Source: Kiritimatiellia bacterium
Lineage (GTDB): Bacteria > Verrucomicrobiota > Kiritimatiellia > RFP12 > UBA1067
NCBI GenBank assembly: GCA_045641645.1
Contig: JAZUHK010000030.1
Location: 1-60,872 of the forward strand
Direction of reading: 5' to 3'
Length of the DNA: 60,872 nucleotides
Position 1 is the stretch's first letter, and every line of letters begins with the position of its first letter. The notes under the pieces are model-generated. The model saw only the letters and a list, made by a program, of their open reading frames with translations, did no database searches and had not been told where the DNA came from. Below are positions 12,792 to 60,872 of the stretch, in pieces. The position numbers and the translations under genes are program-made.

Positions 12792-12843
12792 ACCCCTAAC
12801 CACCTCAATCCTCTACACTTCCACCTTCCATCTTCTCTCCCTT

Positions 12844-13515
12844 ATGATAGTTCCCAGTCACCAAATTCTCCCCTCGCTCTTGGCGGCCGACTTTGGCCGC
12901 CTGGCCGATGAAATCCGGCGGGCCGAGGCCTCGGGCGCCGATGCCCTGCATCTGGATATCATGGACCCGCACTTCGTGCCCAATATCTCCTTTGGTCCTG
13001 AGGTGGTGGCGCTGGCGAAAAAAGTGGCGCCCGGATTCTATCGGAACGTGCACCTGATGCTCTCGCGCCCCGATCTCATCATCGAGGCCTTCGCCCAGGC
13101 GGGGGCGCAGACGATTCAGCTTCATGTCGAGGCCGACTGCGATCTCCACACCGAGCTTAAGCGCGTTCGCGCGCTCGGGTTGAAGGCGGCGATCGTGCTC
13201 AACCCCGAGACGCCGGTCGAGCGGCTTGCGCCGTATCTTGGGGAAATCGACGAGGCGCTGGTGATGACGGTGCATCCGGGGTATGGCGGGCAGAAGTTTA
13301 TTGCCGAGTGTCTTCCTAAGGTGACGTGGCTTCGGGAGCGGTGCCCTGCGCTGGACATCATGATCGATGGCGGCGGCAATGCGGAGACGATTCCGCTCGC
13401 GGCGCAGGCGGGGGCGAATCAGTTTGTGGCGGGCTCCTATCTCTTCAAGCAGCCCGACATGAAGGCGGCCGTCACTGACCTCCGCAATCGCCTGGCCAAT
13501 AACTCCTTAACTTAA
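12844..13515 (+). CDS. rpe: ribulose-phosphate 3-epimerase
   Basis: PSLLAADFGRLADE...HLDIMDPHFVPNISFG...MTVHPGYGGQKF...DGG are classic Rpe motifs. Confidence 0.9.
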   Translation: MIVPSHQILPSLLAADFGRLADEIRRAEASGADALHLDIMDPHFVPNISFGPEVVALAKKVAPGFYRNVHLMLSRPDLIIEAFAQAGAQTIQLHVEADCDLHTELKRVRALGLKAAIVLNPETPVERLAPYLGEIDEALVMTVHPGYGGQKFIAECLPKVTWLRERCPALDIMIDGGGNAETIPLAAQAGANQFVAGSYLFKQPDMKAAVTDLRNRLANNSLT

Positions 13516-13620
13516 CAATCTCAAATCTCAAATTTCAAATCTCTAAAATCTCACCGTTCTCCACCTCCACCTACTTTCCACACCTTCTTCTCCACCTCCA
13601 CCTATTTTCTCCACCTTCTC
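13516..13620 (-). repeat. polypurine composite repeat, reverse orientation (two cores plus a heptamer tail)
   Basis: The reverse complement reads GAAGGTGGAGAAAATAGGTGGAGGTGGA and GAAGGTGTGGAAAGTAGGTGGAGGTGGA, followed by GAGATTT-type repeats. This is the same architecture as 47048-47117. Confidence 0.85.
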
Positions 13621-13637
13621 TATTACCCCTAACCCCT

Positions 13638-14159
13638 ATGCGTAGAATTCTCCTTGGCGTTACTGGATCGATTGCGGCCTACAAGGCCGTGGAATTGGTG
13701 CGGCTCTTCATTAAACACGGCGATCAGGTGCAGGTGGTGATGACCCCTGCGGCGACGGAGTTCGTAAGACCCCTTACCTTCCAGACCCTCTCCCGCAATC
13801 CCGTCTTCGTCGAGCAGTTCGCGCCGATTGTCTCCTGGAAGCCCGAGCATATCGCGCTTTCGGAATGTGACCTTGCGCTCGTCGCGCCGGCGACGGCGAA
13901 TACGCTCGCGAAGATGCGCTACGGCCTCGCCGACAATCTCCTCACGGCGACGCTCCTCGCGACGCGCGCGCCGATCTGGGTGGCGCCGGCGATGAATACG
14001 GGCATGTGGGAGAGCCCCGTCACGCAGGAGAACCTCGCCGCGCTTAAAGCGCGCGGGGTCACGGTTATCGAACCCGTTGATGGCGAGCTGGCCTGTGGCG
14101 TCAAGGGTAACGGACGGATGATGGATCCCGAGAAAATTTTCGCGGCGGTCAGCCGATAA
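13638..14159 (+). CDS. coaC: phosphopantothenoylcysteine decarboxylase (stand-alone CoaC flavoprotein)
   Basis: GVTGSIAAYK, PAMNTGMW and the GELACGVKGNGRM substrate clamp. Only 173 aa, with no CoaB domain fused. Confidence 0.8.
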   Translation: MRRILLGVTGSIAAYKAVELVRLFIKHGDQVQVVMTPAATEFVRPLTFQTLSRNPVFVEQFAPIVSWKPEHIALSECDLALVAPATANTLAKMRYGLADNLLTATLLATRAPIWVAPAMNTGMWESPVTQENLAALKARGVTVIEPVDGELACGVKGNGRMMDPEKIFAAVSR

Positions 14160-14174
14160 GGAATGGGGGTGGAA

Positions 14175-15553: not shown

Positions 15554-16646
15554 GGCCAGTCGCGCGCTTGAAAGCGTTTTTCAGGTGGTTGGAATTGAGA
15601 TACCCGCATTCGACGGCGACTTCGGAAAGCGGCTTCTTCGAGCCGGCCAAGAGCCGCTTCACCGCTTCCAAGCGGGTCTCGCGGATGACCGCGGCGATGG
15701 ATTTGCCGGTGGCGCGGCGGAAATGCAGCTCCAGGGTGGACTTCGGCAGGGAGGAATCGGCGATTACGTCCTTCGCCTTGATGCCGAAGGTGGCGTTGAG
15801 CCGAATGTACTCCAGGGCCGCGGCAATGGCATGGCTATCATAGGCGAGCCGCAGGGAGGAATGGCGGACGACCAGCGTGCGGTAGCTGTAGCTGGACGGC
15901 ACTTCGCCGAGATCGCGCCCCGCGATGAGCGCGGCGAGTTTTTCCGCCGCCAGCTGTCCGCCCCGCCGAAAGTCGGGCTCGATGCTGGAGAGCGAGGGCG
16001 AGCAGTTCTCGCAGACGAGCTCGTCATTGTCGATGCCTAAGACCGCGAGCTCTTCGGGCACGGCGATGCCGCTGGCCGCCGCCGCTTCGATGACTTGCTG
16101 ACCGATCGCGTCGGTCACCGCCAAGAGCGCGGTGGGGCGCGGCAAGCGGCGGAGCTTTTCGCCTAAACGCTGGTCGGCGGTAAGCTTGACCGCTGTCTTG
16201 CCTGTGAGTTCGGCGATGGTTCGGGAGAAGGCCTCCGCGCGCGTCCGGGCATAGTAGTTGTTCTTTTCGGGAAGGACGATGGCGAAGGATTCGCCGCGGA
16301 GCTTGGCGAGCACGCTGGCGGCGAAGCTGGCGGTCGCGGAGTTGTCGTGGTTGACGGCGGCGAGGTTATGGCGCCGAGTGGAAGGTCCGTCAAGCATCAC
16401 GGTGGCGACGCCTTTAAGAAAACGCCGCGGCAGTTTGACGGGCGGCTCGAAGCCGTCGATAATGACGCCGCGCGGGCGGCGGCTCTTGAACAGCTCCTTG
16501 ATCTCTGCTTCGCTGATGGACTTGGTGACGGGCTTGACCGTCCACTTGCGCGCGTTCGCCGCGGCGAAAATGCCGGTCAGCTTTTCGCGCCGCGCGATCT
16601 GCGAGGTGTCGATGACAGCCAGGATTTGGACAGGAGGAACAGACAT
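15519..16646 (-). CDS. XylR-type regulator (LacI-like sensor domain plus AraC HTH)
   Basis: Periplasmic-binding-fold region (LLAVTDAIGQQV...LGIDNDELVCE) followed by an AraC HTH (LSEVAVECGYLNSNHLKNAFKRATGLT). Start chosen at ATG 16646 (MSVPPVQILAV). Confidence 0.8.
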   Translation of the reverse strand: MSVPPVQILAVIDTSQIARREKLTGIFAAANARKWTVKPVTKSISEAEIKELFKSRRPRGVIIDGFEPPVKLPRRFLKGVATVMLDGPSTRRHNLAAVNHDNSATASFAASVLAKLRGESFAIVLPEKNNYYARTRAEAFSRTIAELTGKTAVKLTADQRLGEKLRRLPRPTALLAVTDAIGQQVIEAAAASGIAVPEELAVLGIDNDELVCENCSPSLSSIEPDFRRGGQLAAEKLAALIAGRDLGEVPSSYSYRTLVVRHSSLRLAYDSHAIAAALEYIRLNATFGIKAKDVIADSSLPKSTLELHFRRATGKSIAAVIRETRLEAVKRLLAGSKKPLSEVAVECGYLNSNHLKNAFKRATGLTLSRYRRSYQ

Positions 16647-16654
16647 CAAGGAGA

Positions 16655-16742: not shown

Positions 16743-16778
16743 GCTGAGAATTAGTAAATTGAGCATGGGGGGAAGATT

Positions 16779-17915
16779 ATGCAAAGCAGACGAATTTTGC
16801 CGTTATTGGTCGGGCTGGTGCTGGGCGTTGAGTCTGTTATGGCCGCCGAATGGCCTGGTTTCACCCACGGAGTGGGGATTGGCGGGTGGCTCACCAACTA
16901 CAAGCGCTTCAACGTGCTGCCGCTCGACAAGCGGCGTTTGCTCACCGCAGGCGACTATGAGCATTTCGAAAGCTACATTACCGAGGCGGATGTGAAGCGC
17001 ATCGCTGCTTGGGGGTTCGACCACGTGCGGCTCGGCTTCGACCAGATCGTGGTCGAGGAGCGGGCGGGAGTCCTGCGCGAGCGGACGATGAAGAAGATCG
17101 ACGAGTTCCTTTCCTGGTGCGAAAAGCATCAGCTCAAGGTGGTGCTCAATCTCCATAAGGCCGTCGGCAACTACTGCGATATCGCCGAGGAGGTGCAGCT
17201 TCTGGACGACGATCGGCTTCAGGCGCGGTTCGTCGCGTTTTGGGAGGCGTTCGAGCGGCGCTACCATGACCGCCCCGGCGTTGCCTTCGAACTCTTGAAT
17301 GAAGTGCGGGAGGTGCCGGCGGAGAAGTGGAATGCGCTCGCCGACCGCACCATCCGCGCGATTCGTGCGCTCAATCCGCAGCGCGTGATCGTGGTGGGGC
17401 CGATCGGTTACGGCGGGTCGGAGCATTTAAAGGTGCTGAAGGTCTGGGATGATCCCAAGGTGGTCTATACCTTTCATATGTACGCGCCTTTCGAGTTTAC
17501 CCATCAGCGTGGCGTGTTGCAGGCGGGGCCGCTCGCCTATAATCGCGAACTTACCTATCCGTGTGATGACGTCGATCGCTACCGCGGCTATCATGAGCTT
17601 TGGGGCAACACTAATAGCTACGGCGGCGTGACGCGCATTGACCGCGGCATTCTGGAAGGGTGGCTTGGCGGCGCGGTCGAGTTCGCGAAGAAGCATCCCG
17701 AGAAGATCCTCTGGAACGGCGAGTTCGGGGTGATTCGCCACGCGCCGCGTGCTTCGCGCGTCGCGTATCTTCGCGATGTGATGGCGATTTGCCGGGAGAA
17801 TGGCATTTCGTATTGTCTTTGGAATTATCTTTCCACGCCGAATGACGGCAACCGTTTTTCGCTCGTCGATGACGAGACGCGCGAGTGGCTTTTGCCGGAG
17901 TTGCTGGGGAAGTAG
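16779..17915 (+). CDS. glycoside hydrolase family 5 (cellulase/mannanase-like)
   Basis: Signal peptide. FDHVRLGF, the FELLNEV acid/base motif and the NGEFGV nucleophile motif. Confidence 0.8.
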   Translation: MQSRRILPLLVGLVLGVESVMAAEWPGFTHGVGIGGWLTNYKRFNVLPLDKRRLLTAGDYEHFESYITEADVKRIAAWGFDHVRLGFDQIVVEERAGVLRERTMKKIDEFLSWCEKHQLKVVLNLHKAVGNYCDIAEEVQLLDDDRLQARFVAFWEAFERRYHDRPGVAFELLNEVREVPAEKWNALADRTIRAIRALNPQRVIVVGPIGYGGSEHLKVLKVWDDPKVVYTFHMYAPFEFTHQRGVLQAGPLAYNRELTYPCDDVDRYRGYHELWGNTNSYGGVTRIDRGILEGWLGGAVEFAKKHPEKILWNGEFGVIRHAPRASRVAYLRDVMAICRENGISYCLWNYLSTPNDGNRFSLVDDETREWLLPELLGK

Positions 17916-17975
17916 GGAGGGGAGAATTGTTCGATTGATCGATTGGTCGATTGGTGGGTGGGGGTGGTTAGTCAA
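17913..17975 (+). repeat. polypurine composite repeat, truncated copy (GTAGG..GAATTGTTCGATTGATCGATTGGTCGATT)
   Basis: Shares GGAGGGGAGAATTGTTCGATTGATCGATTG with 44371-44401. The GH5 stop codon TAG is its first triplet. Confidence 0.75.
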
Positions 17976-22868: not shown

Positions 22869-22898
22869 AGAAGCACAATTGTGAAAGGATTGGTTAAA

Positions 22899-25800
22899 AT
22901 GAAAAGAAATTCACTGGTTCTTTGCGGCGTGATGACCTTGGCTTTTGCCGGTAGTCGAGTTCTTGCCTATGAAGACGATTACCTGACGACGACCGATAGT
23001 GGCGTGACGGTGATTGATACCGAGGAGGGGAATCGCGTCTATGTGTTTACGACTGCAGGAACGGAATTGACGGCAACCCTTAAAAGGGATATGAAGCTCG
23101 ACCAGGTTCTGCTGGTTGGCGGTGGCGGTGGTGGCGGCGGATTTAAGGGCGGTGGCGGTGGTGCCGGTCAGGTGATTCATTTGCAGAATCTTAACCTGCT
23201 TCATTCTGTCGGCGTGAGCTATCGCTTTACAGTTGGCTCCGGAGGAACGGCAGGGACGAGCGCGTTTAATGTTTCTGCGGGCGATGGTGGCGATGGTTTG
23301 GCTACGAGTTTCGCCATAACGGGTGCCGATATCGGCGGGAGCGCGAGTTATAGCGCAGCTGGCGGCGGTGGCGGCGGACGCTGGGGAGTCGCGGGGCATA
23401 ATGGCGCATGCGGTGGTGGCGCGGGTGGAACGTCTGATGCTAAGCCGAGTGGTGGCGTGGGTTCGGTCGGCGGCGATGGCGGCAACAATGTCGGTGTCGC
23501 TCGTAATGCCGGTAGCGGTCCGGGCGGCGGCGGCATGGGACGCGATCTTCAGGGCGCAGACGGTGAATCAACCGATACCGGGTTGGGTGGCGCAGGGTAC
23601 CTCTGTTCGATCACCGGGGTGGAGAAGGAGTATGGCCGCGGCGGCGATGGCGGCGGCTTGGCTTCGGCGGCGGCGGGGGCGCTCGGGTCTGGCAATGGTG
23701 GCGGCGGCGGTGCGATGAGCGCGGCTGCCTATTCGGGTGGTTCGGGCACGGTCATTCTGGCTTTTTCACTCAATGCGAAGCCGAAAATCAAGGCCACGCT
23801 TGATGCTGTGGAGCTTCGTCCGAATGGGGAGGCGACAATTCGTTATTCGCTCACTGATGTCGGCTCGGGATCCTGTTCGGTAGCGGTGGCTGTTGCTGTT
23901 GACGAAGGGGACTTCGGGGACACGAATGTCATTGGCAACGTCACGGAACCGGGGACCTTCACGAGCGCGCCGATGGCAATAAGCGGGTTTGCAACTAAGA
24001 CAACCTATCGTTTTAAGCTGATCGTCACCAACGAGAGCGACGATCCATTGGTGACCGAGCCGGTTTCCGCCATTTCGATTCCCGAGCCGGCGGCGACTTT
24101 TGCTGTTCGTGAGGTTGCGGCCGCCATGGACAGTGAGACCTTTTCGGCCCAGGGCGCGATTGCCGTTACGGGGTGTGGAGATTTTTGCGATGCGGTTGAC
24201 GTTTATCTTGTGCTGGCGAAGGAGGGGAACGAAAGGCCGGCGTGGGACGCACCGGTAATGACGGTGGGCTTGGGTGAGGCGGAATACGCTTTCACTGGGC
24301 TTGAGGAGCTTACAACCTATCGCTATTGGTTTAAGGTCGTCAATGCCAATGCGTATGCGACGGAGGTTGCGACGGGAACGTTCAAGACGCCGAAGTATGT
24401 GGAACCTGCGGTGTTGCCCGAGCCGGTCGCGGGTATGACGGTCGAGGAGGCGATGGCCGCCTTGCGGCCGCAGTCCCACCGCGGACCCAAGGTGCTCATC
24501 ATTGGCGACAGTTATTCCACCTTTTATGGATGTATCCCAGAGGATTACGCCGCCTATTACGCGATGACCGCCGGGCAGGTTAAGAACGGCGTCGAGAATC
24601 CGTCCTATACCTGGTGGTACAAGTTCATCAAGGCGGTTGACGGCTATTTGGTGCGCAATGATTCCTATAGTGGATCAACCATCGCCTGGTGGGGGATTTA
24701 TGCCCAAGCCCATAATTTCACCGGCTGGACCTATTGGCAGGCAGACCGTGACGAGTCGTTCTGTGAGCGGGTTAAGAATCTGGGCGAAACCGAAGCGGAT
24801 CGGCCCGATCTTATCTTGGTTTTCGGCGGCACCAACGATAACTGGATGCGGCAGCGCGTGAAAGAAGGCGATGCGTCGCAGATGGGGCCCTACACTTTCG
24901 ATCCGCGTGCTCGCGACGGCCTCGTAAATGAAAACGACTGCGTTCACCTCGCGCCGGCGATTCATCAGCTGATGTGGGTGCTTCGTAACAAGTATCCTTT
25001 GGCCAAGACGATGTTCATCATCAATTCGAGATCCACGGTAAATTATGGTGGAGGGGCTCCGACGGGGAAGGAACAAGACGGTATGACCGATGAATATATC
25101 GAGGCCATTGACGTAGCCGCGCGTGGTCTCGGGTGCGCGACGGTCAAGCTCAAAGACATCGGTAAGGAAAACCAACATCCCAATGTCGAAGGCATGGTGG
25201 CGATTGCCCAGCAGGTGGCGGATAACTATAATGCGTGGAAGAGCATGGATTGGGAGGTGATCTCGCCGTCGGCAGGGATAGGGGCCGATGAAGATGGCAG
25301 CCGTTCGGAGACGGGCGACGAGATCGCTGGTACGGCGAATGAGGACTTCGGTTTCTGGCGGCTCGTCAATCACCGCGATGCCGGTGGCGTTACGCGGCAC
25401 TACCGGGTGATCGCTGTCACCAACGACACGCAGGAACAGCAGGTGGATGTGCCGGCAGATACCGCGGTTGAATATCTTTTGGTAGGCGGTGGTGGCGGCG
25501 CCGGTACGGTGTTTAACGCGAAGTATGGCGGTTGCGGTGGTGCTGGCGCGTTGAACGAGGGCTTCCGGCGGTGGGAAGCGGCGACGACACTGACGGTGCG
25601 ACTGGGTGTGGGCGGGAGTCATGATGCGAGTAACAATGGTCTTCCCGGCTTGCCTACGGTGGTGTATGCGCCGGCGATCACGTGTTTACCATTTGAGGGT
25701 GATGGCGGTAGCCAAGTGACGGAGCGCGAATGTCGGCTCTTGATGGCGGCTGGCGGTGGTGGTGGCGCTAATTGCAATAGTTCGACTATGGGCGTGGTGA

Positions 25801-28064: not shown

Positions 28065-28130
28065 GGATAGTTGGAGTGAAGAGTTGGAGTTAGGTGGCGC
28101 CCGAACCGGTTGCCCGAAGCGGCGGAATTA

Positions 28131-43826: not shown

Positions 43827-43828
43827 GC

Positions 43829-44326: not shown

Positions 44327-44425
44327 GAAGGTTGAGGGAGGGGGAAGGTGGAGAAAGTAGGTGGAGGTGGAGAGGGGAAGAATTGTTCGATTGATCGATT
44401 GAGGGGGAGAAGGTTGAGGTTGTGG
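44326..44425 (+). repeat. polypurine composite repeat, full copy
   Basis: GAGAAGGTTGAGGG flank, exact 28-mer core GAAGGTGGAGAAAGTAGGTGGAGGTGGA at 44344-44371, then GAAGAATTGTTCGATTGATCGATT, then a second GAGAAGGTTGAGG. Confidence 0.9.
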
Positions 44426-44426
44426 A

Positions 44427-46257: not shown

Positions 46258-46272
46258 CGGCGCAAGGTTCCG

Positions 46273-48144
46273 TTACCGTCGGTCGAACTTGCGGTCGAGC
46301 TCGCTCGTGGAGGTGAAGATCATCACGGGTTTGCCGCGCGGGCAGACATAGGGCATTTTGCTCGCCGCCAGTTCCTCGACCAGTTGCGTCGCCTGTTCGG
46401 CGTCCAGCTTGATCGCCGCGCCCGCAAACGAGCGGGCGACTGATTTCGCCACCAGCTCCTCGCGCCAGCGCTCGCCCCCGCGGCGTCCCGAACCGTCGGC
46501 GAGATCCCGGGCGATGGTGGAGAGGACTTTCTCGCATTTAAGCTCCCCGATCAGTTGCGGCACCGCCTCCACCTTGTAGGTATCGGTGCCGAATTCCTCC
46601 AGCAGGAAGCCCATGCTCCGCAAAACCCCGGACGAGGCCTTGACGCGTGCGAAATCGGGCGGCGAGAGGCGCACCACTTCGGGGATGAGGAGCGGTTGGG
46701 AAAGTACGGCGGCATCGCCGTCGCTGGCGAGCAACCGCTCGAAGGCGATGCGCTCGCGGGCAGCGTGCGGATTGATGGTGACAACGCCTGCGTCGGTCTC
46801 GACGAGCAGATAACCGGAGTCGGTGAGGGCGAGGAACTTGAACCAGTTCCAGGGCTTGGCGCGGTCGCCCTCGGCGGCGAGGGGAAGGGATTGCGGTTGG
46901 GGTTGAGGGAGGGGAGGAGGTGGAGAAAGTAGGTGGAGGTGGACAGAGGAAGAATTTTTCGATTCGTCGATTTTTCGATTCGTCGATTGATTTGGGGATT
47001 GGGTGATTGGGGAATTTGAGGGAATGAGAGAAGGTTGAGGGAGGGGAGAAGGTGGAGAAAGTAGGTGGAGGTGGACAGAGGAAGAATTTGAGATTTGAGA
47101 TTTGAGATTTGAGAAGGAAGGTTGACCGGAGGAGGAGGATCGGAGGCCGAGCGCTTGCTCGATTGCCGCGATGAGCGCACGCTTGACGGCAAAATTGTCG
47201 CGGAAACGGACTTCGCGCTTCGTCGGATGCACGTTGACATCCACTTCGCGCGGCGGCAGGTCGATAAAGAGGATCGCCGCCGGCCGCGCTTCGCCGACGC
47301 GCCGCGGATACGCCTCCTTGAGGGCATAGGCGATGGCCGGCGCCGAGGCAGCGCGCCCGTTGACGAAGACATACTGGTCGCGCCGCGTGGCCAGCCCCAG
47401 CCCCGGACGCTCAATGAAGCCCGTCACCCGCACCTCGTCGCCGCGGTGTTCGCCGCCCGCGGGCAACGGCAGGAGGTCTTCAAGGAACTCGTTGCCGAAA
47501 AGTTCGCGCACGCGGTCGCGGACCGTCGTTGCCGGCGGCAGGCGGTAGAGTTCGCGACCGTCAACCGTGAGGACGAAGCCCACTTCGGGGTGCGCCAGCG
47601 CCTGGCTCGTGAAGATCGCCTTGATGTGACCTTCCTCGGTGGCCGCCGAACGGAGGAACTTCTTGCGCGCCGGCACGTTCAGGAAGAGGTCGCGCACCTC
47701 GACGCGCGTGCCGGGCGGCGCCCCGGCCGCCGTCGCCTCGGGCGCTTCCCCGGGCAGGACGCGGATCGCCGTCCCCTCGTCTGCGTCGGCGCGCCGCGTG
47801 ATGAGCGTGAAGCGCGAGACGGCGGCGATGGAGGGGATCGCCTCGCCGCGGAAGCCGAGGGTGTCGATCCGCTCGATGTCATCGACGTCGCGGATCTTGG
47901 AGGTTGCCTGCCGGATGAGCGCGGTGAGCGCGTCCTCGCGCGTCATCCCCGAACCGTCATCCTGGACGACGACGAGCTTGCGCCCGCCTTGCTCCAGGAC
48001 GACCTGGATGTGCCTGGCGCCGGCGTCGAGCGCGTTTTCCACGAGTTCCTTGACGACGCTCGCCGGCCGCTCCACCACTTCGCCGGCGGCGATCTTGTTG
48101 GCGACGTGCTCCGGGAGCACGCGGACGTGTCCGTCGGTAGGCAT
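46273..48144 (-). CDS. mutL: DNA mismatch repair protein MutL
   Basis: GHKL ATPase motifs (IAAGEVVERPASVVKELVENALDAG, DDGSGM, LGFRGEA). C-terminal dimerisation/endonuclease-type domain (INPHAARERIAFE, CPRGKPV). The linker carries two in-frame repeat copies. Confidence 0.9.
   Translation of the reverse strand: MPTDGHVRVLPEHVANKIAAGEVVERPASVVKELVENALDAGARHIQVVLEQGGRKLVVVQDDGSGMTREDALTALIRQATSKIRDVDDIERIDTLGFRGEAIPSIAAVSRFTLITRRADADEGTAIRVLPGEAPEATAAGAPPGTRVEVRDLFLNVPARKKFLRSAATEEGHIKAIFTSQALAHPEVGFVLTVDGRELYRLPPATTVRDRVRELFGNEFLEDLLPLPAGGEHRGDEVRVTGFIERPGLGLATRRDQYVFVNGRAASAPAIAYALKEAYPRRVGEARPAAILFIDLPPREVDVNVHPTKREVRFRDNFAVKRALIAAIEQALGLRSSSSGQPSFSNLKSQISNSSSVHLHLLSPPSPLPQPSLIPSNSPITQSPNQSTNRKIDESKNSSSVHLHLLSPPPPLPQPQPQSLPLAAEGDRAKPWNWFKFLALTDSGYLLVETDAGVVTINPHAARERIAFERLLASDGDAAVLSQPLLIPEVVRLSPPDFARVKASSGVLRSMGFLLEEFGTDTYKVEAVPQLIGELKCEKVLSTIARDLADGSGRRGGERWREELVAKSVARSFAGAAIKLDAEQATQLVEELAASKMPYVCPRGKPVMIFTSTSELDRKFDRR
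46893..47120 (+). repeat. two tandem polypurine composite repeats inside the mutL linker
   Basis: Exact core copies at 46919-46943 and 47048-47075, with TCGATT- and GAGATTT-type tails. On the minus strand they translate in frame as ..SSSVHLHLLSPPSPLPQP.. twice. Confidence 0.9.
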
Positions 48145-52200: not shown

Positions 52201-53475
52201 GTGCGGCAGGTCGAAAGGTTCTGGGAGAGAGAATTGAGAAGGTCAAGTCATCGTCGCATTGCGTTCGTCTGTCTGCGTTCGGATTCGCTGGTGCGCAGCT
52301 TCTATTCCGGCGTCATGCTCTATGCGCGCCGCAATCCGCGGTGGTTCGTGCGCGTGATCGAGGCGGAGCTGCGGCCGGGCTCCGACTGGATCGATTTCGG
52401 CGAGGCCCATCCCAACGGCGTCATCTGCTGCGGGGTCTCGCCGCGCGAGGTGCAGCGGGCGCTGAAGGCCTTCGGCATGGAGCATATCCCCGTGGTGGCT
52501 GCGCCTCAGCAGCTGCCCTATCCCGGCGTCAGCAGCGTATGCTTCGACATGCGCGGCATCGCCGGGCGCGCTATCGAGCTCTTCGCCCGCCGCGGATGCC
52601 GGGCGGTGGCGTACGTCGGTTCCCATTTCCCGCCCGAACGCCGCACTTCGCGGATGCTTCGCGATGCCGTCCGCGAGAAGTCCGCCGAGCGCGGGCTGCC
52701 GTTTTTCACCATCTTGCGCCGTCCCTCCCTGGGGCGCGGCATCGCCATCGTCGAGTCGCAGGACATCTTCCCCTGGATACAGTCGCTTCCGAAGCCCTGC
52801 GGCATCCTGACGTGGAACGACCATGTCGGGCGGGACGTCCTCGACATCTGCCGCTATGCGAACATCAACGTCCCCGGTGCCGTCTGCGTCCTCGGGATCA
52901 ACGACGACGAGTTCATCTGCGAACGGGCGTCGCCCACGCTCTCCTCGTTGCAGCTCGATACCGAACGCGCGGCGTTTCTGGCGGCGGAACGGCTCGACGG
53001 GCTCATTTCACGCCGGGTGAACAACGTGGAGCCGATCTTGTGCGGTCCGAGGGATATCGTCGAGCGCGCCTCCACCCAAGACCGCCTCGGCTCCGGAATG
53101 CTGGTCTCCCTCGCGTGCGAATACATCGCCCAGAACGCCTGTCGTGCAGGCGGCCTCAACCAGGGCGACATCGCCCGTCACTTCGGCGTTTCGGTCCGCA
53201 CCTTGCAGATGCGCTTCAAGGAGGCGCAGTTCGCGAACACCATCCTCAAGGAGATCCAGCGCGTGCAGCTCAAACGGGTCTGCAAGCTCTTGGGCACTAC
53301 CGACAAGTCCATTACCGAGATCACCTTCGCCAGCGGCTTCAATTCGCTCTCCCGGCTGAAGGCCCTATTTCGGCAGGAGTTCGGCATGAGCATGCGGGAA
53401 TACCGCGATGCCGCCGGATCCCGTGGGGGGGGGGGGATCGCGGAAAACCAGTGCGGTTCGCCGAGATTTAACTAA
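52201..53475 (+). CDS. XylR-type regulator (LacI-like sensor plus AraC HTH)
   Basis: VLGINDDEFICE sensor region and AraC HTH (ITEITFASGFNSLSRLKALFRQEFGMS). The start is uncertain: GTG 52201 touches the -10 box, and TTG 52234 preceded by GGGAGAG is an alternative. Confidence 0.75.
   Translation: MRQVERFWERELRRSSHRRIAFVCLRSDSLVRSFYSGVMLYARRNPRWFVRVIEAELRPGSDWIDFGEAHPNGVICCGVSPREVQRALKAFGMEHIPVVAAPQQLPYPGVSSVCFDMRGIAGRAIELFARRGCRAVAYVGSHFPPERRTSRMLRDAVREKSAERGLPFFTILRRPSLGRGIAIVESQDIFPWIQSLPKPCGILTWNDHVGRDVLDICRYANINVPGAVCVLGINDDEFICERASPTLSSLQLDTERAAFLAAERLDGLISRRVNNVEPILCGPRDIVERASTQDRLGSGMLVSLACEYIAQNACRAGGLNQGDIARHFGVSVRTLQMRFKEAQFANTILKEIQRVQLKRVCKLLGTTDKSITEITFASGFNSLSRLKALFRQEFGMSMREYRDAAGSRGGGGIAENQCGSPRFN
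53425..53436 (+). repeat. homopolymeric G12 tract
   Basis: 12 consecutive G in the last 17 codons of the regulator gene (encoding GGGG). Confidence 0.9.
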
Positions 53476-53517
53476 TCACTGAACACTAATCTAACCAAAT
53501 CTAAAAGGACAGATCAA

Positions 53518-54414
53518 GTGACTAACGAAGTATGCACGTCGGCAGCCGCAACGGCTGGGAAACTTACCGGTGAATTCACCCGTCAGCTCACGGAGGGGCA
53601 GGAGCTTTGGAATCAAGCGCTCGCGTGGCTTACCGACAAGGGGCTCTCCTTTGCGGTCTCGCTCGTCGCCGCGCTCGTCATCTTCGTCGTCGGGTTCTTT
53701 GTCATCAAGGGGATCGTCGCCGTCGTCGTCAGGGCGGTGGAGAAGGGCGGCAAGAAGAACACGCTCTTCGCGAATTTCGTTCGTAATGTCACATCCAAGG
53801 TGCTGTGGGCGATACTCGTCGTCATCATCCTCGGCAAGCTCGGCGTTGACGTGGGGCCCCTCGTCGCCGGCCTCGGCGTCACCGGCTTCATCCTCGGCTT
53901 CGCCTTCCAGGAGTCGCTCGGCAATCTCGCCTCGGGGCTCATGATCGCCATCAACGAGCCCTTCAAGATCGGCGACTACGTGATCGTCGCGGGGTTGGAG
54001 GGCACGGTCCTCAAGGTGGACATGATGGCCACCGTCCTCGCCACCGCCGACAACAAGAAGGTGGTCATTCCCAACAAGAGCGCCTGGGGCTCGCCCATCA
54101 CGAACTTCTCGGCGCTCGGCCGCCGCCGCGTGGACATCCAGATCGGCATCGACTACGGCGCCGACGTCCTCAAGGCGATCGAGGTGGCGCTTTCCGCGCT
54201 CAAGACCGTTCCCGGCGTGCTCGCCGATCCTCAGCCCGCCGTCTCGGTGGCGACGCTCGGCGACAGCGCCGTCACCCTCAATGTCCGCCCCTGGACGGAC
54301 GGAGCCACCTACTGGAGCGTCTATAACGACGCGCAGGTGGCGGTGAAGGCGGCGTTCGAGCGCAGCGGCATTCAGATTCCGTTCCCGCAGCTCACGGTGC
54401 ATACGGAGAAGTGA
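53518..54414 (+). CDS. MscS-family mechanosensitive channel
   Basis: TM3/beta-domain signature GVTGFILGFAFQESLGNLASGLMIAINEPFKIGDYV. Confidence 0.85.
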   Translation: MTNEVCTSAAATAGKLTGEFTRQLTEGQELWNQALAWLTDKGLSFAVSLVAALVIFVVGFFVIKGIVAVVVRAVEKGGKKNTLFANFVRNVTSKVLWAILVVIILGKLGVDVGPLVAGLGVTGFILGFAFQESLGNLASGLMIAINEPFKIGDYVIVAGLEGTVLKVDMMATVLATADNKKVVIPNKSAWGSPITNFSALGRRRVDIQIGIDYGADVLKAIEVALSALKTVPGVLADPQPAVSVATLGDSAVTLNVRPWTDGATYWSVYNDAQVAVKAAFERSGIQIPFPQLTVHTEK

Positions 54415-57471: not shown

Positions 57472-57488
57472 ATCTTTTAAGGAGACCT

Positions 57489-58328
57489 ATGCTGTTGACG
57501 GTGGAGCATCTGCGCATTGAATTCGATCTGGGCGAGCGGCGGTCGGTGCCGGTGCGCGACGTGAGCTTCGCCGTGCCCGAACACGGCCGGGTGGCGCTCG
57601 TCGGCGAATCGGGTTCGGGCAAGTCGCTCACGGCGCTCGCGCTCGGGGGGCTCGTCGATCACGCGCGCATTTCGGGGAAAATCACGGGTTCGCCACGCCT
57701 CGCCTATATCTTCCAGAATCCGATGCAGTCGCTCAATCCCGTCTGGCGCGTCGGCGACCAGGTGGCCGAGCGCGCCGCGGAGAGCGACATCCCCGCCCTC
57801 TTCGAGGCGGTGCAGCTGCCGCGTGAGACGATGCGCAAGTACCCCTGTCAGCTTTCCGGCGGCCAGCAGCAGCGGGTGATGATCGCGATGGCCCTCGCCC
57901 GCCGTCCCGAACTGCTGATCGCCGACGAGCCCACCACCGCCCTCGACGTGACGACCCAACGGGAAGTGCTGGATCTGCTGGTGCGCGTCGCCGACGCGCG
58001 CGGGAGCGCGATCCTGCTCATCACCCACAACCTGGGGCTCGTGAGCCGCTATGCCGACGAGGTGAACGTGATGTATGCGGGGGAAGTCGTGGAGCGAGGG
58101 CGGACGGCCGAGGTGTTGTCGCATCCGCGGCATCCCTATACGGAGGGGCTCTTGAAGGCGGTGCCGCGGCTCGACGCGCCGAAGGATGCGCCGCTTGCCG
58201 ACATTCCCGGCACCGTGCCGCCGCCGACCGACTGGCCGACCGGCTGTGCGTTCCATCCCCGCTGTCCTTACGCCCAAAGCGCCTGTGCGGCGCCGGATTT
58301 CACCCGTTGCCCGCGTTTTTTGGTATAA
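57489..58328 (+). CDS. ABC transporter ATP-binding protein, DppD/OppD type
   Basis: Walker A GESGSGKS, signature LSGGQQQR, Walker B LLIADEPTTALD, and an oligopeptide-type C-terminal extension (HPYTEGLL...CAFHPRCPYA). No permease or binding-protein gene is adjacent. Confidence 0.85.
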   Translation: MLLTVEHLRIEFDLGERRSVPVRDVSFAVPEHGRVALVGESGSGKSLTALALGGLVDHARISGKITGSPRLAYIFQNPMQSLNPVWRVGDQVAERAAESDIPALFEAVQLPRETMRKYPCQLSGGQQQRVMIAMALARRPELLIADEPTTALDVTTQREVLDLLVRVADARGSAILLITHNLGLVSRYADEVNVMYAGEVVERGRTAEVLSHPRHPYTEGLLKAVPRLDAPKDAPLADIPGTVPPPTDWPTGCAFHPRCPYAQSACAAPDFTRCPRFLV

Positions 58329-58329
58329 T
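58321..58329 (+). promoter_or_regulatory. extended -10 box TGGTATAAT for smc
   Basis: Contains the TAA stop of the ABC ATPase gene. Ends 9 nt before the smc ATG 58339. Confidence 0.45.
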
Positions 58330-58338
58330 AGCCCCCTA

Positions 58339-60840
58339 ATGTACCTCAAGCAGTTAGACATCCTCGGTTTCAAGAGCTTCGCGGACAAGACGAAGCTCGC
58401 TTTCGATCCCGGCCTGATCGCGATCGTCGGTCCGAACGGGTGCGGCAAGTCGAATGTTTCCGATGCGATCCGCTGGGTGCTCGGAGAACAGCGGCCGACG
58501 GCGCTTCGCTGTTCGAAGCTGGTGGATGTGGTCTTCAACGGCACCGATACCCGCAAGCCCCTCGGGCTCGCCGAGGTCTCGATCACCTTCGCCGACTGCG
58601 AGCGGGAGCTGGGGACGGAATATCACGAGGTGACGATCACCCGCCGCGTCTATCGCGATGGCTCGGGCGAGTATTTCCTCAACAAGCAGTCGTGCCGGCT
58701 CAAGGACATTCAGCATCTTTTCATGGGCACGGGCATCGGCACGAACTCCTATTCAGTGATGGCCCAGGGTCAGATCGATGCGATTCTCTCCTCCAAGCCC
58801 GAAGACCGCCGCGCCGTCTTCGAGGAGGCGTCGGGCATCACCAAGTTCAAGGCCGACCGCAAGGAGGCGATCCGCAAAATCGAGCAGACCGAGCAGAACC
58901 TCCTGCGGGAAGCCGATGTCCTCCGGGAGATGAAGCGGCAGATCGGCTCCTTGCAGCGGCAGGTGGGGAAGGCCCAGAAGTACAAGGAGCTGCGCGACGA
59001 GCTCAAGGGGCTGGACATCTACGTCTCCAAGAACCGCATCCACGGCTTCGACCAGGAGCTGGAGCAGAACGCTGTCAACCGCCAGGAGATCGACAAGGCC
59101 ATCGCCGAGGCGACGGAGACGGTGGTGGTCGCCGAGAAGACCCAGCAGGAGCTGCACGCCGAGATCCATGCGCTGGAGGAGCGGTTGCAGACGCTCGCCT
59201 CCCAGCAGGCGGCGGCCGACAGCGCCTATAGCCGCGCCAACGAGGTGATCGGCGTCAATACGACGCGCATCGCCGAATACCGCGAGTTCGCCGCGCGCGA
59301 CGAGTCGGAGATCGCGGGTGCGAAGGAGCAGCTCGGGGAGCTGGCGCTGCAGGTGGAGTCGCTCGACCAGAAGACGAAGCTCCTCACCGATTCGCTCGCC
59401 GCCACGCGCGAGGCGCTGGCCGAGAGCGAGGGCGCTTTCGCCGATTCCCAGGCGAAGATCGAGACCCTTAGGGCCGATATCGCCGCGCGGCGTCAGGAGG
59501 CGGCGAACACCACGCTTACCGGCACGCTCGCCGAGGACGCGAAGGTCAGCCGCGAGGGGAAGGTCGAGGTGTGGAAGGCGGGCACTACGGTCTCCACCGC
59601 CGATCGCCGCGAGTTCCTGCTGGCCGAGCTTTCGGGGAGCGAGGACGAGCTTCGTCAGGCCGAGATCGCTTCGATGACGCTTTCCCAGCAGCTTACCGAG
59701 CGCCGCATCGCGACGAGCCAGATGGAGCAGGAGCTTTCGTTCGTCGGGCAGCAGGCGGCCGACGCGCAGAAGCGCCGCGATGAGCTGCAACGCTCCATCG
59801 AGGGGCGGCTCAAGGGTATCGAGGGCTATCACGATTCGATCGACCGGCTCACCGAGGAGTCGCGGGAGCTTACCGCCAGTTTGGAGGACCTGAGGGGCGC
59901 GGCGGTCGATTGCCGCGCGGCGATCGAGGAGGAGCGCGGGAAGCGCGCTTCGCTGATGGATCGGATTTCCGAGGCCGACCGCGTGGTGGCCGAGAAGCGC
60001 GGCGGGCTCGATCAGGCGCGCGACTTCCGCGCCAAGCTGGAGGTGCAGGCGGCCGAGGCGACGATGCGCCGGCAGAACGTCTATGCACACTTGCAGGACG
60101 AGTACGGGCTTTTCGCCGATGCGGTGATGCGCGAGCCGGATCCCGAGTGGAAGGGCGAGGTGCCGTCGATGGACGTCCTCGAAAAGAAGGTGGAGAAGCT
60201 GCAGGCCGACATCGCCGCGCTCGGCCCCGTCAACATGGTCGCGATCGACGAGTGTCGCGAGCTGGAGGAGCGCTATGCGCGCGAGAAGGCGCAGGAGGAG
60301 GATCTCCTGGCGGCGAAGGCGCAGATCCTGGAGCTCATCACCAATCTCAACACCACTTCGTCCGATCTTTTCCGCAAGACCTTCGAGCAGGCGAACAAGA
60401 ATTTTCAGACGATGTTCACCAAGCTCTTCGGCGGCGGCGAGGCGCGGCTTGTCCTCCTGGAGAACGAGGAGGATCCGCTTGAATGCGGCATCGACATCAT
60501 CGCGCGTCCGCCCGGAAAGCGGCCGCAGTCGGTGACGCTGCTCTCCGGCGGCGAGCGGACGATGACGGCGGTGGCGCTCCTCTTTTCGATCTTCATGATC
60601 AAGCCCGCGCCGTTCTGCATGCTCGACGAACTCGATGCGGCACTCGACGATGCCAACATCGGCCGCTTCGTCGATCAGCTCAAGGAGTTTTTGGCGAAGT
60701 CCCAGTTCCTCATCATCACCCACAACCAGCACACGATCGCCGGCTCCGACCTCGTTTACGGCGTCTCGCAGCAGGAGAAGGGCATTTCCCGCGTCATCTC
60801 CATGAAGCTGGGCGATCTGGGGGTGAAGGGGAGAGAGTAG
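58339..60840 (+). CDS. smc: SMC-family chromosome condensation ATPase, short form (833 aa)
   Basis: Canonical Smc head: FKSFADKT, GPNGCGKSNVSDAIRWVLGEQ, LSGGERTMTAVALLFSIF, FCMLDELDAALD. Two coiled-coil arms of about 235 aa each. No recognisable hinge domain. Confidence 0.8.
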   Translation: MYLKQLDILGFKSFADKTKLAFDPGLIAIVGPNGCGKSNVSDAIRWVLGEQRPTALRCSKLVDVVFNGTDTRKPLGLAEVSITFADCERELGTEYHEVTITRRVYRDGSGEYFLNKQSCRLKDIQHLFMGTGIGTNSYSVMAQGQIDAILSSKPEDRRAVFEEASGITKFKADRKEAIRKIEQTEQNLLREADVLREMKRQIGSLQRQVGKAQKYKELRDELKGLDIYVSKNRIHGFDQELEQNAVNRQEIDKAIAEATETVVVAEKTQQELHAEIHALEERLQTLASQQAAADSAYSRANEVIGVNTTRIAEYREFAARDESEIAGAKEQLGELALQVESLDQKTKLLTDSLAATREALAESEGAFADSQAKIETLRADIAARRQEAANTTLTGTLAEDAKVSREGKVEVWKAGTTVSTADRREFLLAELSGSEDELRQAEIASMTLSQQLTERRIATSQMEQELSFVGQQAADAQKRRDELQRSIEGRLKGIEGYHDSIDRLTEESRELTASLEDLRGAAVDCRAAIEEERGKRASLMDRISEADRVVAEKRGGLDQARDFRAKLEVQAAEATMRRQNVYAHLQDEYGLFADAVMREPDPEWKGEVPSMDVLEKKVEKLQADIAALGPVNMVAIDECRELEERYAREKAQEEDLLAAKAQILELITNLNTTSSDLFRKTFEQANKNFQTMFTKLFGGGEARLVLLENEEDPLECGIDIIARPPGKRPQSVTLLSGGERTMTAVALLFSIFMIKPAPFCMLDELDAALDDANIGRFVDQLKEFLAKSQFLIITHNQHTIAGSDLVYGVSQQEKGISRVISMKLGDLGVKGRE

Positions 60841-60872
60841 GTGGAGGGGGAGAGAGAAGGTGGAGAAAGTAG
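60820..60872 (+). repeat. polypurine composite repeat (runs off the right edge)
   Basis: GAGAGAGTAGGTGGAGGGGGA, followed by GAAGGTGGAGAAAGTAG at 60856-60872. The smc stop codon TAG lies within the GTAGGTGGAGG core. Confidence 0.8.

Follow-up and report, generated by a model that had tools for sequence, protein, structure and literature searches.

Short, nearly cytosine-free mosaic repeats in gut Kiritimatiellia, possibly spread by short-homology copying

Element sites in the window

The window, one whole contig of 60,872 nt, carries a methyltransferase gene, rpe, a flavoprotein gene, GH5 and fucosidase genes, hsp33, mutL and an SMC-like gene. Within or beside these lie eight sites of one repeat family, full, truncated and degenerate copies taken together (Table 1). 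The repeat unit measures ~30 to 90 nt, and one of its strands is nearly free of cytosine. Its 25-mer core, GGTGGAGAAAGTAGGTGGAGGTGGA, is present in five full-length copies, where none was expected by chance (100 shuffles). Each element is a mosaic of a 5' G-rich module, the core, a CAGMGG linker and microsatellite tails, and several core "dialects" exist (A, B, C and D).

Table 1 Repeat elements in the window and their gene context
Positions	Strand	Element	Core positions	Location
8305-8356	+	Variant C-free cassette with (AATGAAG)n		Inside methyltransferase gene 7836-8774
12778-12849	-	Degenerate element		G-free leader of rpe (ATG at 12844)
13516-13637	-	Composite: GAGATTT-type tail (13517-13553), two cores, GGGGTTAGGGGTAATAGAGAA module	13560-13584 (2 mismatches); 13591-13615 (1 mismatch)	Entire spacer from rpe (stop 13515) to flavoprotein gene (ATG 13638)
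17913-17975	+	Coreless partial element: GGGAGGGGAGAATTG, (TTCGATTG)n tail, GGTGGGTGGGGGTGG		3' end of GH5 gene 16779-17915; TAG stop inside element
28053-28099	+	Dialect-B core GTTGGAGTGAAGAGTTGGAGTTAGG	28069-28093	Junction of ORF 22881-28064 and fucosidase gene
44325-44419	+	Full element	44347-44371 (exact)	Between 165-aa ORF (TGA 44324-44326) and hsp33 (ATG 44427)
46879-47126	+	Two tandem full elements	46919-46943 (exact); 47051-47075 (exact)	Interdomain linker of mutL (46273-48144, -)
60806-60872	+	Degenerate core, then cut core	60819-60856; 60859-60872	End of SMC-like gene 58186-60840

An earlier note on this DNA had proposed the family, which is confirmed here as genuine, modular and dispersed. 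The module order given there (GAGAAGGTTGAGGGA, core, GAAGAATT, then TTCGATTG or GAGATTT tails) was recovered, as were the two reverse near-exact cores within 13557-13620 and the edge-truncated copy, GGTGGAGAAAGTAG, inside which the window ends. The mutL linker location was also borne out, with the copies in frame. A degenerate copy suspected near 60832-60855 corresponds to a core-like sequence of 82% identity over 38 nt, and the possible copy in the rpe leader is a degenerate element whose orthologue in another strain, GTGTAGGTGGAAGGTG, is closer to the core. The copy described as degenerate or truncated at 17913-17975 is indeed a partial element, but the core is absent and only the linker and tail module are present. 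Two sites, the methyltransferase cassette and the second core dialect at 28069-28093, were missing from that description. The generalisation that all copies lie at gene 3' ends or in the mutL linker is wrong for the 8.3-kb, 12.8-kb and 13.5-kb sites; the lack of terminal inverted repeats or a REP-type palindrome holds in this genome.

The methyltransferase cassette encodes TREMTNEEFRMKNGGGV, shortly ahead of the LDMGCGCG motif of the enzyme. At the same codon position strain L031 carries an unrelated, oppositely oriented cassette (SKELSQPPTPTPTSSPCI; G-strand GTAGGGGTAGGGGTAGGGGG), the protein flanks being ~99% identical between L031 and the window strain. An intrinsic terminator (12752-12776) and a TATAAT box lie upstream of the rpe-leader element. 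With respect to rpe and the flavoprotein gene alike, the 13.5-kb element is antisense, and it adjoins a start codon; it is kept in strains L031 and L032, where both cores match the consensus exactly, and is missing in a species with 85% Rpe identity, in which the spacer is 22 nt. Positions 17919-17945 are 96% identical to 44375-44401 (family D12), and the L031 counterpart of the coreless element has another number of tail units followed by an inverted dialect-C module. Positions 44325-44337 and 44407-44419 hold the two copies of a 13-nt direct repeat, GAGAAGGTTGAGG. Both mutL elements are antisense to the gene; the region also holds a TTCGATTCG-type tail, GATTGGGG repeats, a second module 1 and a (GAGATTT)4 tail, and copy 2 is flanked by a 9-nt direct repeat, GAAGGTTGA. 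The degenerate core at the end of the SMC-like gene provides its TAG stop (60838-60840).

Distribution among species and turnover between strains

The most important features lay beyond the reach of the earlier note: that other species carry in-frame copies in many housekeeping genes, that copies turn over from strain to strain, and that there are several core dialects. That note had said that confinement to the window would mean local duplication; the family extends outside it. Exact core 22-mers were found at 12 loci in ~8 gut Kiritimatiellia/Verrucomicrobia MAG species, with 1-3 exact core copies per MAG elsewhere, and at 13 genuine metagenome loci. The comparison with catalogued families that had been suggested gave no match in Rfam or in phage, plasmid and viral collections, and no counterpart in the searched literature. 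The family looks like a previously undescribed type of small copy-and-paste DNA. The same 25-mer encodes VEKIGGGG in a eukaryotic kinase exon, a match we regard as coincidence.

The family is multicopy and modular, occurs in several dialects and many species, occupies operon spacers and in-frame loops or linkers, and is gained, lost or swapped at the level of strains. Coding hosts of in-frame copies include mutL, pyrG, carA, methyltransferase, glycosidase and other genes, and in PyrG and CarA the same protein loops were struck repeatedly by different dialects. Copies also occupy operon spacers and furnish stop codons. Composite units of 70-90 nt at different loci are 80-93% identical.

Between conspecific strains with flanks 91-100% identical, elements are present, absent or replaced, and these differences often fall at rearrangement junctions. 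At the hsp33 site L029 lacks 82 nt, retains one 13-mer and has an 18-nt spacer; its mutL has both copies plus 6 nt. In L028 mutL, with flanks 100% identical, copy 2 has been lost between the 9-nt repeats and dialect B/C modules replace core 1, which is of type A. Repeats flanking the elements measure 0, 9, 9, 10 or 13 nt and in every case look like the 5' end of the element itself; ends are imprecise, without a fixed duplication, and the 30-nt pyrG insertion has no target duplication. The L019 copy brings ~20 nt of the gene neighbouring the donor locus. One element lies at the end of a 216-nt duplication, and a 69-nt duplicated gene fragment and truncated helicase genes were found at other element junctions. 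Strain identity shifts from 85-94% to 98-100% at the 44.3-kb element, and the same species shows a 1.6-kb deletion between two GGGAGAA words.

Composition, orientation and conservation

The G-rich strand is ~80-85% purine with regular T, and contains 0-2 C per 60-145 nt. "C-depleted" is therefore a better label for it than "polypurine", and the suggestion of an almost pure purine strand with triplex or H-DNA potential is weak, since T breaks the purine strand every 3-6 nt; given the absence of C and the G-tracts, a G-quadruplex is the more plausible predicted non-B form. Because one strand is nearly C-free, secondary structure is predicted on neither strand and five of six reading frames are open. 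Predicted folding energies were 0 to -5 kcal/mol in 5/7 elements, compared with -15 to -44 kcal/mol for equally long genome segments; the other two, with TCGA-type tails, fold to a predicted -11 and -21 kcal/mol.

All nine coding loci (eight distinct insertion sites, the pyrG site being common to L001 and L008) are sense and in the VEKV frame, reading VEKVGGGG. Of 26 copies, 22 have a G-strand that follows the local GC skew. Outside the elements, related words are biased between the + and - strands (GAAGGTG 23:7, GGTGGAG 26:7, GTGGAG 49:11), and sense-strand words in genes fall mostly in phase 0 (AAGGTG 33/35, GTGGAG 28/32). This bias towards the sense strand and one codon phase matches the orientation bias and single frame of the copies, although within genes the sense:antisense ratio of words is only ~2:1, weaker than the 9:1 observed for copies. 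The frame bias could also stem from selection against the alternative peptide GGESRWRW.

In pyrG the copy differs at 1/30 positions and its flanks at 120/600 (p=0.018); at third positions the figures are 0/10 and 88/200 (p=0.006). Between species with saturated synonymous sites, the rare central AAAGTAG spacer does not vary. Such conservation suggests either that a conserved factor recognises the sequence or that copies are still being homogenised.

Origin of the copies and comparison with known repeats

Our best explanation, offered tentatively and with a little less than even confidence, is that these are lineage-specific short interspersed mosaic repeats of gut Kiritimatiellia, spread by short-homology copying and tolerated as harmless. 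The copying mechanism is inferred from junction anatomy in a few filled/empty pairs; where a filled allele has flanking repeats, it may just as well be ancestral, the partner strain having undergone a deletion. No dedicated transposase that recognises ends would be needed to make new copies: a DNA end, or a strand being synthesised at a stalled fork or break, would pair through a few homologous bases with an existing copy, copy through it and then return, by template switching or short-patch gene conversion. The core arms, GAAGGTGGAG and AGGTGGAGGTGGA, probably consist of the genome's commonest C-free words (ranks 2-16 among 729 C-free hexamers; 250-670 for the central AGAAAGTAGGT) and, being so common, would offer plentiful landing sites. 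The mostly sense gene words, nearly always in the phase AAG-GTG-GAG, would explain the sense-oriented VEKVGGGG copies. Copies would persist because they do little harm: a strand of three letters cannot fold, contains few stop codons and uses common codons; host use as stop codon, ribosome-binding site or linker may have come later.

Passive copying does not readily explain the identical AAAGTAG spacer and the excess conservation of the pyrG copy. Both speak for a rival reading, which we consider unlikely, in which the repeats are non-autonomous mobile DNA whose conserved core, a ~30-nt block identical across species, is recognised by a dedicated but unseen enzyme encoded elsewhere (an HUH/Y1-type transposase, recombinase or reverse transcriptase). 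The GC-skew orientation recalls single-strand transposition, and the microsatellite tails and variable flanking repeats are reminiscent of retroposition. One species has a PF05635 gene between inverted cores and, at another place on the same contig, a derivative with an internal deletion, an arrangement that resembles an IS-to-MITE relation; in the R19 organism TTAC and a 7-bp hairpin with a compensatory variant come after the core. However, most copies lack inverted repeats or hairpins, target duplications are not constant, the L019 "derivative" marks the end of a segmental duplication and is not a clean insertion, and no transposase, reverse transcriptase or other candidate enzyme was recognised near copies in the inspected loci (~250 kb of fetched flanks). 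Rather less probable is a host-selected cis-acting signal in RNA or single-stranded DNA, which could be a very strong Shine-Dalgarno-like site holding 30S for coupling, pausing or mRNA protection, a spacer that is Rho-proof when sense and Rho-loading when antisense, or a G-quadruplex. GGAGGTG and AGAAAGtAGGTGgA are complementary to what we take to be the usual 16S 3' tail (the 16S gene lies outside the window), and the core serves as a ribosome-binding site at two loci, GGAGGTGGAcgATG (L009, L014, L023) and GGAGGTGGAcagcgGTG before APRT (L027). Sense copies start at or within stop codons, the pyrG conservation is at the nucleotide level, a quadruplex is predicted at GGTGGAGGTGG, and 8/36 regions with a G4Hunter score of at least 1.5 are element sites. 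Against such a signal, orientation varies (the 12.8-kb, 13.5-kb, mutL, L016 and L024 copies are antisense), the start codon is 2 to >70 nt away, promoter and terminator motifs are absent from the elements, in dialects B, C and D the architecture survives while the strong match to a ribosome-binding site and the tight G4 do not, and close strains or sister species have no copies at the same sites.

It is highly improbable that the core is an oriented chromosomal signal (a DNA-uptake sequence, Chi-like hotspot or KOPS-like polar motif). The motif is G-rich and follows GC skew, strain identity shifts at the 44.3-kb element, and copies occur in genome-maintenance genes (mutL; the end of the SMC-like gene); but the conserved block is 25-30 nt rather than the 5-12 nt of such signals, arrives as an insertion with tails and not embedded in pre-existing sequence, is unevenly dense (five full copies per 61 kb here, a few exact ones per MAG elsewhere) and differs in dialect inside one genome. 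Convergence of independent low-complexity linkers or microsatellites through purine-rich Glu/Lys/Gly/Val codons is scarcely credible. In homologues of MutL, PyrG and CarA the linkers generally vary and consist of low-complexity sequence, and the kinase exon does reach the same 25-mer; yet blocks of 25-33 nt are identical, with no synonymous variation, in unrelated genes and noncoding spacers, loci have the composite units in common, and the noncoding copies common to loci already contradict convergence without copying.

The family has partial likenesses to several known systems. Rickettsia palindromic elements are likewise short selfish repeats, intergenic and in frame in housekeeping genes, lineage-specific and translated as extra surface loops; however, they are palindromic, 100-150 bp and found in Rickettsia, whereas the present repeats span 30-90 nt and are strand-asymmetric, with no predicted secondary structure and with microsatellite tails. 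BIME/REP and NIME are also high-copy mosaics of a few short modules in varying order, in operon spacers and at gene ends, and are recombination or rearrangement hot spots, but the building blocks of BIMEs are GC-rich REP palindromes, on which RAYT transposases act; the present elements have no palindrome and lie inside coding sequence as well. MITEs (Correia, ERIC, RUP) are small, noncoding and strain-variable and may fuse to ORFs or supply expression signals. Their terminal inverted repeats, fixed target duplication and parent IS were not found here, except for the one inverted pair in one species. MIRUs are 40-100-bp units, strain-variable in number, in operon spacers touching the flanking stop and start codons; unlike the present elements, whose orientation varies and whose in-frame coding copies are common, they form tandem minisatellites that invariably run in the direction of the operon and do not occur inside conserved enzymes. 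STAB-SD sequences of Bacillus mRNAs are purine-rich (GAAAGGAGG-like), with extended 16S 3' complementarity, away from start codons, but are single regulatory sites and not a dispersed mobile family in two orientations with predicted 16S pairing. Cyanobacterial STRR heptamers and intrastrand-triplex motifs (PMC4666352) are strand-asymmetric simple units, including heptamers, associated with genome instability; they are simple tandem arrays or G/C triplex motifs, whereas in the present family it is a fixed 25-mer core, containing rare central words, that is copied from one locus to another.

A dispersed family of cytosine-free repeats

The 25-mer core GGTGGAGAAAGTAGGTGGAGGTGGA is present in the window as three exact copies, with near-exact copies carrying one or two mismatches; no core match is expected in shuffled window sequence. 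The window end cuts through another copy, with a degenerate core immediately upstream, and since the window is the entire 60,872-nt contig, assembly broke in the repeat. Aligned copies show the module order GAGAAGGTTGAGGGA, core, CAGAGGAAGAATT and tails of the TTCGATTG or GAGATTT type, bearing out both the dispersed family and the modular build proposed in an earlier note. That note had also described one strand as almost pure purine. The window was scanned for stretches with at most one C (or G) per 30 nt, which recovered every site noted earlier and added two (a cassette at 8.3 kb and a second core dialect at 28.07 kb); the trait that defines the family is a strand without cytosine, not pure purine. 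The consensus of 27 distinct copies contains the conserved block aAGGTGGAGAAArTAGGTGGAGGTGGA(c/g)AGcGG, and the GTAG of the core is ATAG in many copies. Units measured 30–90 nt among the loci compared. A longer master element was rejected by all-against-all BLAST of the loci, in which the largest shared unit was ~90 nt.

A 22-mer scan of 185,579 species genomes returned 12 loci in ~8 MAGs, all labelled Kiritimatiellia or Verrucomicrobia and originating from horse faeces, rumen or human gut. Scanning metagenomes with the same 22-mer added 15 loci, two of them in a eukaryotic kinase exon. Confinement of the motif to the window, which the earlier note had named as evidence against its own reading, was looked for across these genomes and metagenomes and does not hold, exact copies being present in ~8 MAGs. 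Density is about one copy per 8 kb in the window, versus one to three exact copies per MAG elsewhere. The family is real and dispersed, and apparently undescribed so far; the earlier note had not recognised it, and neither Rfam, nor the phage, plasmid and viral collections, nor the literature searched contained a match to it. Rfam gave no match at the gathering threshold for the window and five related loci, nor at E ≤ 1 for positions 44250–47200. In the literature searched, a 16-mer of the element was absent, a 12-mer matched cloning linkers only, and nothing relevant was found on Kiritimatiellia repeats, polypurine mosaic elements or PF05635 mobility. A phage or plasmid origin was rejected on zero matches in a phage collection, a plasmid collection and viral contigs, and an assembly artefact or chimera because identical insertions recur in independent assemblies and inside intact genes. 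Exact-protein look-ups for sequence past the contig end, and for extra strains at other sites, returned no match.

The eukaryotic 25-mers (loci L015 and L026) lie in glycine-loop codons (ELVEKIGGGGFS) of an exon encoding ELVEKIGGGGF, and are a coincidental match, not the element. A convergent peptide motif, which accounts for these two, was ruled out for the bacterial copies by a comparison of nucleotide-level conservation. A more distant Kiritimatiellia species (L033–L035) carries a C-free repeat of its own, ATAGTGAATAGGTTATRGTGAAT, at two sites, of which one lies immediately upstream of rpe; this sequence suggests that the phenomenon may extend beyond the A-type core.

Genomic sites and insertions in coding sequence

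The gene context of eight window sites was assigned from Pfam scans and from gene calls on syntenic contigs.

Positions of the elements and of other features, in the window unless a related locus (L number) is named
Feature	Position	Orientation	Context
Cassette	8.3 kb (8305–8356)		Within methyltransferase gene
Element	12.8 kb	antisense	G-free leader of rpe, 3' of intrinsic terminator and TATAAT box
Element	13.5 kb; near-exact cores 13560 (−, 2 mismatches), 13591 (−, 1 mismatch)	antisense	Entire 122-nt rpe–flavoprotein spacer, reaching ATG
Element	17.9 kb	sense	Source of TAG of GH5 gene
Dialect core	28.07 kb (28069–28093)		Gene junction
Element	44.3 kb; exact core 44347 (+)	sense	Occupies spacer upstream of hsp33
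Two tandem elements	46.9–47.1 kb; exact cores 46919, 47051 (+)	antisense	MutL interdomain linker; open frame, ...SSVHLHLLSPP... encoded twice
Element	60.8 kb	sense	Source of TAG of SMC-like gene
16-nt unit, 2.2 copies	46954–46988		In mutL frame
7-nt GAGATTT unit, 4.1 copies	47086–47114		In mutL frame
12-G run	53425–53436		Near ends of ORFs 52201–53475 and 53491–54402
Exact 25-mer	L015 962–986; L026 6979–7003		Protein kinase exon, AT-rich eukaryotic contig
ATAGTGAATAGGTTATRGTGAAT repeat	e.g. L034 8114–8169, 12183–12227		Distant Kiritimatiellia species
Inverted A-type cores	L023 6190–6665		Either side of PF05635 gene
Internally deleted derivative	L019 826–975		End of 216-nt duplication
1.6-kb deletion junction	L031 12781–12792; window 16225–16232, 17786–17793		Shared GGGAGAA word
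Low-GC segment, 2.3 kb	4487–6800		Absent from L031
87-nt direct repeats	4400–4486, 6615–6701		Borders of low-GC segment
C-rich 48-nt repeat	6677–6848, 4462–4509		Tandem array adjoining low-GC segment
Giant ORF, 3596 aa	31817–42607		Between-strain mosaic

The earlier note had placed every copy at a gene 3' end or in a mutL linker. The linker copies are indeed there, as two tandem antisense elements with the frame open, and 3' ends apply at some sites but not at others, for example the intragenic cassette at 8.3 kb, the rpe leader at 12.8 kb and the antisense spacer at 13.5 kb. Of the core's six reading frames five are open, and the remaining one holds the TAG that serves as stop codon of two genes. 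The elements place frame-sensitive 7- and 16-nt microsatellites in mutL, where one unit gained or lost would shift the frame and could so switch mismatch repair on or off; unit numbers are equal in the two strains compared. The 12-G run could, from its sequence, be a slippage-prone tract.

In other species the core lies on the sense strand of a long ORF at nine loci, always encoding VEK(V/I)GGGG. These are eight distinct insertion sites, the pyrG site being common to L001 and L008, in genes for CTP synthase (pyrG, same site in two species), a GH3 glycosidase, two GT2 glycosyltransferases, an ABC exporter, an M3 oligopeptidase, a coiled-coil protein and a large secreted-type protein. In-frame insertions of the family were also found in mutL, carA and the methyltransferase gene. 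A translational bypass or frameshift element was rejected because the frame stays open in every coding copy. A CTP synthase homologue, 94% identical, reads EELEK-DPSLIE-GVDG without the insertion, and the pyrG DNA alignment contains a clean 30-nt addition, GTGGAGAAAGTAGGTGGAGGTGGACAGCGG, corresponding to a 9-residue gap in a glutaminase-domain loop of a solved CTP synthase. Exactly this loop carries other purine-encoded insertions in other lineages; one is a different dialect, GGGAAGAAGGAAGAAGGAAGAAGTG, which recurs, twice sense and once antisense, in the CarA linker encoded on the same contig. MutL linkers of relatives are similarly variable.

Conspecific strains were represented by L028, L029 and L031/L032 (three contigs from other assemblies, 91–100% flank identity). 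In the window the 44.3-kb element is flanked by the 13-nt word GAGAAGGTTGAGG; L029 is 82 nt shorter here and keeps the word in a single copy. At this point strain identity steps from 85–94% on the left to 98–100% on the right. Both mutL copies are present in L029. L028 lacks copy 2, which in the window is flanked by the 9-nt word GAAGGTTGA, with coding flanks 100% identical, and has dialect GTTGGAGTAAAGAGTTGGAGTTGGA instead of core 1, with unchanged architecture and an additional inverted third module. In the methyltransferase gene, the cassettes of two strains occupy the same codons but are unrelated and oppositely oriented. The 13.5-kb element is common to the conspecific strains and missing in a species whose Rpe is 85% identical, where the spacer is 22 nt. 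Elements also coincide with the end of a 216-nt segmental duplication (L019), with a 69-nt duplicated gene fragment, and with truncated helicase genes in two MAGs. Separately, a stretch of ~1.6 kb that covers most of the GH5 gene is missing from L031, and the junction in a shared word points to a microhomology deletion beside the 17.9-kb element.

Orientation, conservation and the manner of spread

In 22 of 26 copies the G-rich strand accords with the GC skew of the surrounding sequence. Coding A-type copies are antisense in mutL only, and the sense coding copies all share one of the two open frames. Words of the core arms, counted outside the elements, show a 3- to 4.5-fold excess on the + strand, which is mostly sense (GAAGGTG 23:7, GGTGGAG 26:7, GTGGAG 49:11). 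Within genes, the phase is AAG-GTG in 33 of 35 cases and GTG-GAG in 28 of 32; arm hexamers rank 2–16 among the 729 C-free hexamers of the genome, and those of the central AGAAAGTAGGT rank ~250–670. Given this strand bias, phase and ranking, insertion at short homology would by itself give the sense orientation and the VEKVGGGG frame, and would land in Glu/Lys/Val/Gly-rich loops. Flanking direct repeats, where present, are 9–13 nt and always like the element's own 5' end (GTGAAGGTG, GAAGGTTGA, GAATGAGGTG, GAGAAGGTTGAGG); lengths of 0, 9, 9, 10 and 13 nt were seen, and most copies have none. The L019 copy carries ~20 nt of the gene adjoining a donor-like copy in L023, an apparent signature of templated copying that overran the element. 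Copying into sites anchored on short homology, with passive tolerance of the result, is the best-supported mechanism, and we favour it tentatively.

That an unseen dedicated enzyme drives the spread is, in our judgement, unlikely: flanking repeats that vary or are absent argue against the fixed duplication of a transposase. Such an enzyme would nevertheless fit the rare central spacer, identical across species, and the conservation of two insertions. Between two species the pyrG insertion differs at 1/30 positions versus 120/600 in its flanks (p=0.018), and at 0/10 third codon positions versus 88/200 (p=0.006). The non-coding 13.5-kb element differs at 5/122 positions versus 40/398 neighbouring third positions (p=0.04). 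It would also fit the inverted A-type cores that bracket, in L023, a gene of PF05635 (23S rRNA intervening-sequence protein, Avd-like). Conservation of this kind could reflect either continual homogenisation of copies or a sequence read by a conserved factor, and candidate readers of the core are the unseen enzyme and the ribosome. A selected RNA or DNA signal, which we consider quite improbable, draws on the same conservation and on GGAGGTG and AGAAAGtAGGTGgA, complementary to the 16S 3' tail; we take this to be the generic bacterial tail, the organism's 16S gene lying outside the window. At two loci the core stands at ribosome-binding distance from a start codon, as a putative RBS. Conservation, RBS-like use and the cores around PF05635 keep both rivals to homology-anchored copying alive.

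It is rather unlikely that the elements represent a novel category of mobile DNA in bacteria, a ~30-nt C-free mimic of codons. The arms of such an element would imitate the in-phase codon pairs that occur most often in the host, and it would paste itself in frame, without its own transposase, into operon spacers and essential enzymes; alternatively, the work would be done by a repair polymerase or reverse transcriptase templated by a copy in RNA or single-stranded DNA. The rare central spacer and cross-species identity would then mark recognition by a factor, and protein linkers such as MutL's would be continually remodelled.

L019, on the same 59.6-kb contig as L023, holds an internally deleted derivative that retains ~18 nt of the 5' end of the PF05635 gene and an internal piece, and adjoins a NusG-like gene and an AbiEii toxin pair. 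A diversity-generating retroelement acting through the PF05635 gene was rejected, as a reverse transcriptase was not found nearby. A promoter or terminator role was likewise rejected, since promoter-like and terminator-like motifs were searched for and none was found within the elements. A quadruplex-aware model predicted a two-tetrad G4 at GGTGGAGGTGG; in the A dialect, sequence pattern and model energy favour this candidate, and loops are longer in dialect B. Element sites make up 8 of the 36 regions with a G4Hunter score of at least 1.5.

Relation to known repeat families

The view that the elements lack terminal inverted repeats and resemble neither MITEs nor REPs held up: inverted arms are absent within them, predicted folding energy is ~0, and the core is unable to pair with itself because one strand has no C. 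For five of seven elements both strands are predicted to fold at 0 to −5 kcal/mol, whereas length-matched genome segments reach −15 to −44; the other two, whose tails contain TCGA, have small predicted hairpins (−11 and −21 kcal/mol). MITE-like inverted ends are limited to the one inverted core pair of L019/L023, flanking repeats vary from 0 to 13 nt where MITEs have a fixed-length target-site duplication, and a search of the window and of ~250 kb of retrieved loci revealed no related autonomous IS whose ends match. REP/BIME units are GC-rich imperfect palindromes of 20–40 nt with a GTAG head and a RAYT, whereas no palindrome is present here. Rickettsia palindromic elements are the closest match in behaviour, inserting likewise in frame in conserved protein genes, but are palindromic units of 100–150 bp, unlike the 30–90-nt, predicted unstructured elements. 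DUS/USS have a 9–12-nt core at ~1/kb in both orientations, often as inverted pairs that act as terminators; here a 25–33-nt block is biased in orientation (22/26) and sparser. Chi/KOPS are 5–8-nt words embedded in ordinary sequence and co-oriented with replication; the present elements show an orientation bias, but the unit is far longer and arrives as an insertion. MIRUs are tandem, co-oriented 40–100-bp units of operon spacers that overlap stop and start codons; intercistronic copies resemble them, as at 44.3 kb, but the antisense 13.5-kb element and the coding copies do not, and in architecture BIME and NIME mosaics are closest. The family thus falls outside MITEs, REP/BIME, Rickettsia palindromic elements, uptake sequences and every Rfam family, and probably outside Chi-type words, leaving a small interspersed mosaic repeat of distinctive C-free, codon-mimicking design.

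To our knowledge, few bacterial repeats inside essential genes have been found since the Rickettsia palindromic elements. The present family lives in such genes in a different phylum and is built quite differently, with no palindrome, a three-letter alphabet and arms made up of codon pairs that are common. How very short DNA spreads without obvious machinery, and how operon spacers and protein linkers are remodelled between strains, can be tested on it. In practice the elements interrupt metagenome assembly, as at the end of this contig, and inflate or change the proteins predicted from Kiritimatiellia MAGs.

Separate REP-like hairpins adjoin some copies in other species. In the R19 metagenome (L013, L016, L022, L025) the core is followed, ~20–45 nt downstream, by TTAC and a 7-bp hairpin, CGGCGTG-CCT-CACGCCG, with a compensatory change in L013 (GGCCTG/CAGGCC); by sequence, the C-free core of that organism appears to be fused to a REP-like module. 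The 2.3-kb low-GC (~48%) segment of the window, absent from the conspecific L031 and bordered by direct repeats 97% identical, encodes a DUF4282 protein and a 438-aa protein without Pfam match, and looks like a strain-specific insertion or a between-repeat deletion. The C-rich 48-nt repeat beside it (TCGCTRYCGCTCCCTTCGCT...) is unrelated to the C-free family. The giant ORF, with a weak PATR repeat match, is a mosaic of 87–98% identity blocks between strains (window 34337–44337 versus L029), and the 11 kb that follow are 98–100% identical between the window and L029.
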